Source: an uncultured Clostridia bacterium
GTDB lineage: Bacteria > Bacillota > Clostridia > Christensenellales > UBA1242
Length of the DNA: 64,000 nt
Assembly: GCA_948442695.1 (NCBI GenBank)
Contig: CAOJSF010000003.1
Coordinates: 46,716-110,715 of the forward strand
Direction of reading: 5' to 3'
Position 1 is the stretch's first letter. Each line of letters starts with the position of its first letter. The notes under the pieces are model-generated. The model ran no database searches. It worked only from the letters and a program-made list of their open reading frames with translations, and was not told where the DNA came from. Below, one piece after another: positions 8,825-9,652 of the stretch. The translations under genes and the position numbers were made by a program.

Positions 8825-9652
8825 TTAAGTATTATTTTGTTTATTCTCTACCATTGCTATATTAGATGTTTTAAGCCTTTCAACTAGCCTTTGCATAAAA
8901 TCTTTTTCACTAGGTAAATATATTTTATCCAAATAATATGTTAATTTATTATCATTATTTAAAAAGTAATGCCCATTTTCAAAAGTATTGTAGTCAAGTA
9001 CACCAATATATTCTTTGTATTGCTCTTCTAAAATACTATATAATAAGTCGTCGTCAATCTCAAATTCTGGAACATCAATATTTTTAAACCCTTGACTTCA
9101 AGTTATTATTCTTGCACCTATGGGGAAATAGGTATAAAAGCGATTGCCTTGTTGGATTGTATCATCTTTATATTTGGTAATATATTTTATTAAACCTCGT
9201 ATTTCATAAGCATTTTTAATATTGACAAATCCATAATCTCAAAACTTTTTAATATCATAATAACCTATTTTTAATTTTTCTTCATTTAATAATATTATAT
9301 GTATGTGGAAAAAGTGGCTTGTGCCTTGCACTTCAATAGCCCTTATATATTTAATATTGTTGCCATAGTTTCGCCTTATGCTTTTTATAAATTGTTTAAA
9401 GGCATTTAACACTCTATCAAACTCTATATAATGTTCAAAGGTAAGCGTAATTCATTTAGCAAAATAATTTGTCAAGTCCAGTTTATATAGTTCATACCTT
9501 TTGCGATTGATTGTTCTATTATAATCTTTTCTATCCATATTTAGTTTAGGCTTATCGCTACGCCTTAACCCATTTCACTTTTTATCTGCCTTTTCAGTAT
9601 TAAAATTTTTTGAAACAATAATCATTCCGTTTGCAAATTCAATTTTGTACAT
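8825..9652 (-). CDS. HUH rolling-circle replication initiator-like protein; needs TGA=Trp at 4 codons, otherwise a pseudogene
   Basis: It is absent from the ORF track. Reading from the ATG at 9652 to the TAA at 8825-8827 gives 275 codons. The only interruptions are TGA at 9575-9577, 9452-9454, 9239-9241 and 9098-9100. Motifs: K[W]ITLTFEH, SHFFHIHIILL (HUH) and F[W]DYGFVNIKNAYEIRGLIKYITKY (YxxKY). There is no in-frame TGG. Confidence 0.6.

Follow-up and report, generated by a model that had tools for sequence, protein, structure and literature searches.

Conserved in-frame TGA codons at tryptophan positions of the Rep and Xis-like genes of a small integrative island in standard-code gut Clostridia

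INTRODUCTION

Several prophages that are integrated in hosts with the standard genetic code read a stop codon as sense. The TAG-recoded Garnet and Topaz phages and the TGA-recoded Agate and Jade phages are described cases, and their recoding has been proposed to separate the integrated from the active phage state (Borges et al., 10.1101/2021.08.26.457843). Here we describe an 8.4-kb integrative island in which a comparable recoding appears to be limited to two genes. The island lies in a 64,000-nucleotide stretch of DNA (the window) from an uncultured Clostridia bacterium (Christensenellales, UBA1242; assembly GCA_948442695.1, contig CAOJSF010000003.1, positions 46,716 to 110,715). Its replication initiator (Rep) gene has TGA at all of its tryptophan positions, and so does a small gene that resembles an excisionase (Xis) gene. 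Plain coordinates are positions in the window, and G000 denotes the genome that holds it.

The island resembles the recoded prophages in being integrated in a standard-code host, in having in-frame stops that appear to be read as sense and in having an integrase free of such stops. It is unlike them in its small size and in the lack of recognizable virion, packaging and lysis genes. Two genes (Rep and Xis-like) are recoded in the island, many late genes in the prophages. In the TGA-recoded Agate phage examined, the replication genes are free of TGA, whereas the replication gene of the island bears it. The island also encodes no suppressor tRNA, release factor or tryptophanyl-tRNA synthetase (TrpRS). 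Since suppressors are detected in just ~35% of code-4 (TGA=Trp) phages (10.1101/2021.08.26.457843), the lack of one is not disqualifying by itself.

A second group of related systems consists of tRNA-Trp species that read UGA with the anticodon CCA, as in Zinderia, in the Hirsh G24A mutant and in the tRNAs studied by Fakih et al. (NAR 2026, PMC13092985). The known cases are either genome-wide reassignments accompanied by release-factor changes or standard-code carriers without an assigned role. Genes for tRNA-Trp(CCA) whose anticodon stem has 4 bp are patchily distributed across bacteria, standard-code ones included, and their native role is unknown (PMC13092985). An unpaired 27–43 position gives ~2.5-fold more read-through of a UGA reporter in E. 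coli when the tRNA is over-expressed, and G24A likewise promotes UGA reading; mobile elements are not mentioned in that study (PMC13092985). The only tRNA-Trp of the host described here shares with these tRNAs the CCA anticodon, the unpaired 27/43 position, the 7-nt loop and A24. Unlike in the known systems, release factor RF2 is kept, 15% of the host genes stop at UGA and the island genes alone use UGA for Trp.

Leaky UGA codons are also found in single genes. The A1 protein of phage Qbeta and the inefficient reading of UGA as Trp in Bacillus subtilis are examples, in which a near-cognate tRNA-Trp gives a minor full-length product. In such genes a single UGA stands at the end of a complete protein and read-through adds an extension, whereas the island Reps have 3–5 UGAs at conserved Trp positions inside the catalytic domain. 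Only the read-through product of a Rep gene can therefore be functional.

HUH initiators of small Gram-positive plasmids and of filamentous and plectro-type phages share with the island Rep the PF23343 match and the H-I-H and Tyr motifs, and weak structure matches suggest a similar, HUH-like fold. Rep differs from them in sitting on an integrase-bearing chromosomal island, away from any recognizable Zot-like or coat genes, and in encoding Trp as TGA. A terminal integrase, an Xis-like gene, an opposite-strand XRE regulator, an own initiator, small size and occurrence at several sites are features shared with satellites of the phage-inducible chromosomal island (PICI) type and with integrative mobilizable elements. 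Unlike in these, packaging (terS), capsid-remodelling, relaxase and oriT functions are not recognized in the island, and no helper is known. In the literature searched, including that on PICI-like and mobilizable elements, in-frame UGA control of island Rep or Xis genes was not found described.

RESULTS

The Rep frame is open across four TGA codons

Translation of the minus strand gives 275 codons followed by a TAA stop. The frame contains four in-frame TGA codons and no TGG, TAA, TAG or frameshift. An earlier note, made from the letters of this DNA alone, had claimed as much in calling the gene intact solely under TGA=Trp. The residue contexts that it gave for the four TGAs match the translation (Table 1), its HUH motif HFFHIHI and Tyr motif YITKY are both present, and its count of zero TGG in the gene is correct. 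With 43% A and 31% T on this strand, ~21 TAA or TAG codons are expected per 275 codons. The probability of finding none is ~3e-10, and open frames are seen in 0 of 20,000 shuffles. Because the absence of TAA and TAG is so improbable, the frame is taken as a maintained coding frame and not as a chance hole. The first TGA occurs early, at codon 26, and >90% of the frame lies downstream of it.

Table 1. Features of the island and of its surroundings in the window
Feature	Position	Strand	Remarks
Integrative island, 8,402 bp	1524–9925		~26% GC, host ~31–40%; short A/T-rich repeat at borders
Tyrosine integrase, 485 amino acids (aa)	1757–3214	-	PF00589, E 1.3e-24; TGG 8, TGA 0
Xis-like small gene, 73 codons	3180–3401	-	Upstream of integrase, overlaps its start; sole Trp codon 31 (3309–3311) is TGA
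Island gene, 168/170 aa	5791–6303	-	Ends TGA-TAT-TAA; ending kept in every variant, down to 69% identity
XRE-type helix-turn-helix (HTH) regulator, 102 aa	7713–8021	+	PF01381 HTH_3, PHROG repressor families; strand opposite to flanking island genes
191-aa gene downstream of Rep	8059–8634	-	Syntenic in most variants; homologs tagged PF27257; one Trp, TGG
Rep gene, predicted HUH rolling-circle initiator, 275 codons	8825–9652	-	Every Trp codon (4) is TGA; assigned by Pfam, PHROG and motifs
TGA codon 185, IIT-W-SQGF	9098–9100	-	TGA in close variants except L006 (TTA, Leu)
TGA codon 138, KKF-W-DYGF	9239–9241	-	Trp in 11/11 homologs (5 TGA, 6 TGG)
TGA codon 67, AK-W-ITLTF	9452–9454	-	Directly before motif 1; TGA throughout variants of the island; high-confidence model strand
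TGA codon 26, KK-W-NG	9575–9577	-	From translation; homolog column Trp in 7/11 (6 TGA, 1 TGG)
Shine-Dalgarno/ribosome-binding site GGAGG	9661–9665	-	8 nt 5' of Rep ATG, from sequence
Host tRNA-Val(TAC) and terminator	9965–10040	-	Flanks the island, outside it
Host rsmA	13205–13984		Stops at TGA
Host tatD	13981–14787		Stops at TGA
Host Gate-domain spmA-like gene	15067–15675		Stops at TGA
Host tilS	35705–37045		Stops at TGA

The frame encodes a predicted rolling-circle initiator

Translated with TGA as Trp (table 4), Rep matches Pfam family PF23343 (REP_ORF2-G2P) over residues 66–162 with an E value of 1.6e-15 and 57.6 bits, above the cut-off of 27.8, so that the earlier suggestion of a Rep-like gene holds in a profile search. 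PHROG 3584, a replication initiation protein family, also matches (E 5.6e-9), and small plasmids of Staphylococcus and Lactobacillus have 'replicative protein' genes whose products are 29–33% identical to it. His116 and His118 of the HIH motif and Tyr157 of YITKY are invariant among 11 homologs at 22–82% identity. The AlphaFold (AF2) model of Rep has a mean predicted local distance difference test score (pLDDT) of 74.6, with a core at about residues 50–160 that reaches 85–95. Trp67 and Trp138 are inside this confident core, while Trp185 is in a later strand with pLDDT of ~82–89. Foldseek gives only weak matches in the PDB. The top one is Rep ORF119 of Sulfolobus islandicus rod-shaped virus 1 (SIRV1; PDB entry 2x3g), with an E value of 2e-3 and a template modelling (TM) score of 0.55 on the target; origin-binding domains of adeno-associated virus (AAV) Rep rank lower, and no PDB match falls below E 1e-3. 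By profile and motif the frame encodes a rolling-circle (HUH) Rep, for which nicking and joining at a double-strand origin would be expected.

The TGA codons are conserved in related Reps

Six loci in five species-representative metagenome-assembled genomes (MAGs) encode Reps that are 91–97% identical to that of the window. All have TGA at codons 26, 67, 138 and 185, and none has TGG. Labels on the records of these MAGs read uncultured Eubacteriales, Clostridia or Christensenella; several of the MAGs come from a mouse-gut catalogue. Metagenomes contribute Rep proteins at 95, 82 and 75% identity, all of which use TGA for Trp as well. The 75% lineage has a fifth TGA plus one TGG, and in the 82% lineage the fourth site is TTA (Leu). 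Taken together, the copies at 75–97% identity come from several metagenomes and at least six genomes besides G000. Frameshifts and internal TAA or TAG are absent from the close copies, two of which stop 15 codons early. For ten copies from different genomes or samples, the pairwise ratio of nonsynonymous to synonymous substitution rates (dN/dS) over the whole frame is 0.08–0.22, at dS up to ~1. The earlier note had considered assembly errors as a possible source of the TGAs; identical TGAs occur across independent assemblies from several studies.

In an alignment of the 11 homologs, down to 22% identity, W138 is invariant and is encoded by TGA in five cases and by TGG in six. Two further Trp columns have four TGA and two TGG, and six TGA and one TGG. 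Two cluster representatives at 35% identity likewise require TGA=Trp. The homologs thus have Trp at the TGA columns, spelled TGA or TGG interchangeably, as the earlier note had supposed, and TGA behaves in the alignment as a synonym of TGG. Conservation of the TGAs, the low dN/dS and the exchange of TGA and TGG at Trp columns rule out decay and assembly error, which agrees with the doubt already voiced about ordinary decay. The comparison shows an intact Rep gene under purifying selection along its whole frame. It is very likely that TGA is read as Trp under selection.

Three further Rep loci are present in G000. One (C21:147–974) is a second copy of the island, cut off by the contig end, and its Rep is 97% identical. 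Another (C1:53882–65950, island C) is a complete island with a Rep ... Xis-Int layout, in which four of four Rep Trp codons are TGA. The third (C3:22094–24846, island B) has the same layout and is known from its Xis, integrase and Rep genes alone. The Reps of islands B and C are merely 24% identical to the window Rep. In other genomes of the host family, TGA is carried by 8 of 13 scored Rep matches. A search of 399 genomes that belong to other families of the class gave 10 Rep homologs, all without in-frame stops. TGA-bearing Reps are restricted to the host family among these genomes. No close Rep homolog was found in GenBank phages (by tblastn) or in plasmid collections. Three scans of IMG/VR also gave no relatives, but their back-translated patterns spell W as TGG and are partly blind to TGA copies.

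Recoding is confined to the Rep and Xis-like genes

In the island of the window (island A) the TGA/TGG counts are 4/0 for Rep, 1/0 for the Xis-like gene and 0/19 internally for all other genes, with 0/8 in the integrase (Fisher p = 2e-5, Rep and Xis against the rest). The pattern is kept in every variant examined. Island C has 4/0 in Rep, no TGA in Xis and 0/27 in its other genes (Fisher p = 3e-5), and island B has 1/2 in Rep, 1/0 in Xis and 0/8 in the integrase. In other genomes of the family, internal TGA occurs in Rep (0–2 per gene) and in Xis alone, and integrases and large cargo proteins have none. Overall, integrases and cargo genes contain 0 TGA against well over 60 TGG. The Trp of the Xis-like protein is encoded by TGA in three of three homologs that have Trp there (including G000 C3:22094–22306 and the homolog in genome G050), while two others have Asn or Tyr. 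The 'Xis' role of the 73-codon gene is assigned from its size and position, and the protein has no Pfam match. Going by these counts, recoding is a property of particular genes and is seen again in unrelated types of island. A code-4 origin would scatter TGA over all genes, and the pattern therefore points to a function in the excision and replication genes.

One other island gene has TGA close to its end (5791–6303, Table 1). Either the TGA is the stop, followed two codons later by a conserved back-up stop, or it encodes a penultimate Trp.

A 75% variant of the island (L001) has a serine recombinase (7491–8945 of that locus) in place of the tyrosine integrase. An unrelated 62-codon gene just upstream of the recombinase (7310–7498) also has one in-frame TGA, at codon 30.

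The island is mobile and small

Two independent lines agree on the island borders. Homology to 97–98% identical islands in genomes of other species (L025 and L030) begins and ends at about these positions, and the flanks differ. A contig of an unrelated mouse-gut run (X4) represents the empty site, fusing 1523 to 9926 with seven letters common to both sides; contigs that bear the island co-occur in the same run. Nearly identical copies at different chromosomal sites, together with the empty site, mark the island as mobile among standard-code hosts, as judged by sequence comparison. The junctions are short A/T-rich sequences just past terminators. An attachment site in the tRNA was looked for, and no repeat of the tRNA-Val 3' end is found at the junctions.

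On the minus strand Rep is followed by the 191-aa gene, the opposite-strand XRE-type regulator, several proteins of no known family, the Xis-like gene and the integrase. The regulator is likely to be the island repressor, given its family matches. Six of the 11 island proteins have no family match, and one of these is predicted to be membrane-bound. Pfam and PHROG scans of the proteins recognize no virion, packaging, lysis or conjugation genes, relaxase and oriT included. An inovirus or plectrovirus prophage was considered and rejected, as Zot-like ATPase and coat proteins are not recognized in the island.

A contig from an RNA-labelled library (X19) carries 36 other letters in place of the 191-aa gene (8033–8770), which suggests modular variation downstream of Rep. 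Sparse contigs of the RNA libraries (X19, X20) reach parts of the island, with a depth of 1–6; they may contain DNA and are uninformative on Rep expression. In run X1 the island has a depth of ~18–22 and its flanks ~7–9. We draw no conclusion on replication from this, because the genome carries the island twice in nearly identical form and contig depth does not measure copy number. A circular-junction contig is not reported among the contigs of the metagenome runs.

Outside the island, a further low-GC stretch at 600–1520 with a 136-aa open reading frame (ORF) at 902–1312 (minus strand) may be the remnant of another insertion. A perfect 17-nt tandem duplication is found at 579–612. On the other side, an 852-aa host protein (10511–13069, minus strand) adjoins the island; it has no Pfam family, several apparent hydrophobic segments and a Lys/Glu-rich tail. 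Farther away, the window contains a BspA-type leucine-rich-repeat protein (28242–29096) and one open frame of 4,855 codons with a TGA stop (49420–63987, minus strand), which presumably encodes a giant surface protein.

The host has the standard genetic code

The host genome is 1.32 Mb with 31% GC, 96.9% complete with 0.3% contamination, and the contig of the window measures 127 kb. ARAGORN finds 40 tRNAs that cover every amino acid, with a sole tRNA-Trp of anticodon CCA. The UCA anticodon is absent among them, and there is therefore neither a UGA suppressor tRNA nor a tRNA-Sec. The gene for RF2 (prfB) is found with 483 bits, and a search of 201 genomes sampled from the host family finds it in 200. 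Both results bear on the earlier note, which had asked for tRNA-Trp(UCA) and prfB to be checked: the former is not found and the latter is present. TGA terminates 157 of 1,026 long host ORFs (~15%), and long-ORF coverage of the genome is 80% with table 11 against 81% with table 4. The four host genes of Table 1 all stop at TGA, as had been stated before for rsmA, tatD and the spmA-like gene, and have Pfam matches that extend to the C-termini of their proteins. A code-4 host is rejected on these grounds: prfB is kept, tRNA-Trp(CCA) is alone, TGA stops are common and table 4 gains almost nothing. The host, a gut bacterium, has a reduced genome and keeps the standard code.

We scanned the genome for frames in which a TGA is flanked by coding sequence on either side, and filtered them by a codon-usage score. 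The scan leaves ~25 places, among which the Reps stand out; the remaining ones resemble adjacent genes in the same frame. No recoded prophage or cluster of TGA-split genes is found in the host genome by this filtered scan. Long frames outside the islands that score as coding across TGA lie in G000 at C5:52574–55132, C9:49197–51251 and C1:245860–247806. They could be neighbouring genes that share a frame, or host genes whose TGA is read through.

The host tRNA-Trp is a candidate decoder

A scan of positions 1–10600 with ARAGORN and Rfam for a suppressor tRNA or other RNA gene finds only the flanking tRNA-Val. No tRNA gene was found in 24 related island loci, and the island itself lacks genes for a suppressor tRNA, a release factor and TrpRS. 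The sole host tRNA-Trp(CCA) (G000 C1:166587–166660) has an A27/C43 mismatch, which leaves a 4-bp anticodon stem with a 7-nt loop. Its D-stem GTTC/GAAT gives a U11–A24 pair, the same state as in the Hirsh G24A mutation.

The tRNA-Trp type was compared with the number of TGA codons in Rep. In four of the genomes G201–G205 the tRNA-Trp is identical to that of the host, and in the fifth it is 97% identical and has both features; their Reps have 4–5 TGAs. A tRNA-Trp with a 4-bp stem and A24 is also present in G066, with three Reps having 2, 1 and 1 TGA. A 5-bp stem with A24 is found in G050 (two TGAs) and in G172 (one). The canonical form with a 5-bp stem and G24 occurs in G134 (two TGAs) and in G109 and G158 (none). 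This trend is suggestive only, given a small sample of related genomes.

Host genes give two further signals. An in-frame TAA or TAG follows nearer after TGA-ended than after TAA-ended genes (median 8 against 11 codons, p = 0.008). The base T never follows an in-frame Rep TGA, and it follows 46% of genuine host TGA stops. Back-up stops and the +4 base fit a leaky UGA in the host, although the signals are weak. We tentatively propose the host tRNA-Trp(CCA) as the decoder, on the strength of these sequence features.

DISCUSSION

The reading that we favor overall, at roughly even confidence, is that gene-specific UGA recoding throttles excision and replication of the island. That the in-frame UGA acts as a throttle or gate of some kind we regard as rather probable. 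UGA in Rep and Xis would be a deliberately poor Trp codon, at which near-cognate decoding competes with RF2, and the likely reader would be the host's only tRNA-Trp(CCA) with its 4-bp stem and A24. With n serial UGAs the output would scale as about the n-th power of the read-through efficiency, the fourth power for Rep. Because of this scaling, basal Rep would be very low and the island quiet while integrated, and Rep would respond steeply to shifts in the balance of tRNA-Trp and RF2. We infer the identity and efficiency of the decoder and its regulatory role from the comparisons above.

Several points weigh against this mechanism. Support for translation through the Rep TGAs is comparative throughout. 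Four serial UGAs demand a high per-codon read-through, and the gain reported in vivo is just 2.5-fold with an over-expressed tRNA. The correspondence between tRNA-Trp type and TGA load is imperfect, as G134 combines a canonical tRNA with two TGAs, and G050 and G172 have 5-bp stems with two and one. The host genome is a 96.9%-complete MAG, and a suppressor tRNA could sit on unassembled DNA. Back-up stops and the +4 base give modest signals, and the TGA sites include many orthologous ones that do not count independently. Retention of TGA over TGG could also reflect A/T mutation pressure once UGA is readable.

A different decoder is conceivable. The island may be satellite-like, with Rep and Xis translated when an infecting TGA-recoded (code 4) helper phage delivers a UGA suppressor tRNA, which we consider unlikely. 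The code switch of the helper would then be the induction signal, and the island would excise and replicate as the helper starts its late programme; this is an equally doubtful proposal. Without a cognate suppressor, four UGAs in series block translation almost absolutely. A decoder is encoded neither by the island nor by the host genome, and the layout of int, Xis, repressor and replication genes resembles a phage-inducible island. TGA is limited to the induction genes Rep and Xis, and the integrase and the regulator are free of it, as are the integrases of recoded prophages (10.1101/2021.08.26.457843). TGA-recoded phages occur in animal guts, some of them predicted to infect Firmicutes and some with TGA suppressor tRNAs (10.1101/2021.08.26.457843). 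However, no helper was found, and the genome holds no recoded prophage or cluster of TGA-split genes. Relatives are missing from GenBank phages and from IMG/VR (within the partial blindness of those scans to TGA-coded W), and neither packaging nor capsid-interference genes are recognized in the island, six of whose 11 proteins match no family. The TGA-bearing Reps occur in one host family, and the highest TGA loads coincide with the unusual tRNA-Trp; a property of the host therefore explains the pattern more simply than a helper phage. The helper stays in consideration because four UGAs lock the genes very tightly and recoded phages are known from gut Firmicutes.

That the TGAs were inherited from a code-4 donor is improbable. 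Rep and Xis would in that case have evolved in TGA=Trp hosts, for example of the Mycoplasmatales type, and would be untranslatable passengers here, selection having acted elsewhere. Alternation of TGA and TGG at Trp columns is indeed the pattern of a code-4 gene. The GC content of the island is low, and PF23343 is named for ORF2/G2P replication proteins, which presumably include those of phages of the code-4 genus Spiroplasma. A legacy of this kind predicts TGA across all genes, contrary to the integrases and cargo genes, which have none among their well over 60 Trp codons. Near-identical islands occupy different sites in several standard-code species, with an empty-site polymorphism, and dN/dS is 0.1–0.2 among copies that all reside in standard-code hosts, where RF2 is present in 200 of 201 family genomes. 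All 10 of the Rep homologs found in the class outside the host family are free of in-frame stops, and plasmid and phage collections contain no close homolog.

An ordinary pseudogene, in which TGG-to-TGA nonsense mutations killed Rep, is a very remote prospect and we regard it as already refuted. Such a change takes a single transition, and G-to-A is favored in an A/T-rich genome of 31% GC. Decay does not explain why all four Trp codons are hit and nothing else, with no TAA or TAG where ~21 are expected. The same TGAs are held at dS up to ~1 with dN/dS of 0.08–0.22, and the pattern recurs in the Xis-like gene and in the 24%-identical Rep of island C, where four of four Trp codons are TGA. Selenocysteine, for which UGA is the codon, is rejected as having a negligible chance, since tRNA-Sec is not found in the host genome, homologs have TGG (Trp) in the TGA columns, and each such codon needs its own selenocysteine insertion sequence (SECIS), four or five of which within a 275-codon gene are implausible.

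Descriptions of stop recoding in standard-code hosts have so far concerned phages, usually with many recoded late genes and often with an own suppressor tRNA. New here is a minimal, non-viral-looking island with recoding limited to its excision and replication genes and with no decoder of its own. Islands of this class are probably under-annotated in gut MAG catalogues, because gene callers split or drop such genes. If a helper phage decodes the UGAs, the island would be a satellite that senses its helper in a new way. If the host tRNA-Trp with its 4-bp stem and A24 decodes them, it would be the first suggested physiological use of this widespread variant in a setting where RF2 and UGA stops are kept. 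UGA would then have a double meaning in one cell, exploited by a mobile element as an expression throttle.

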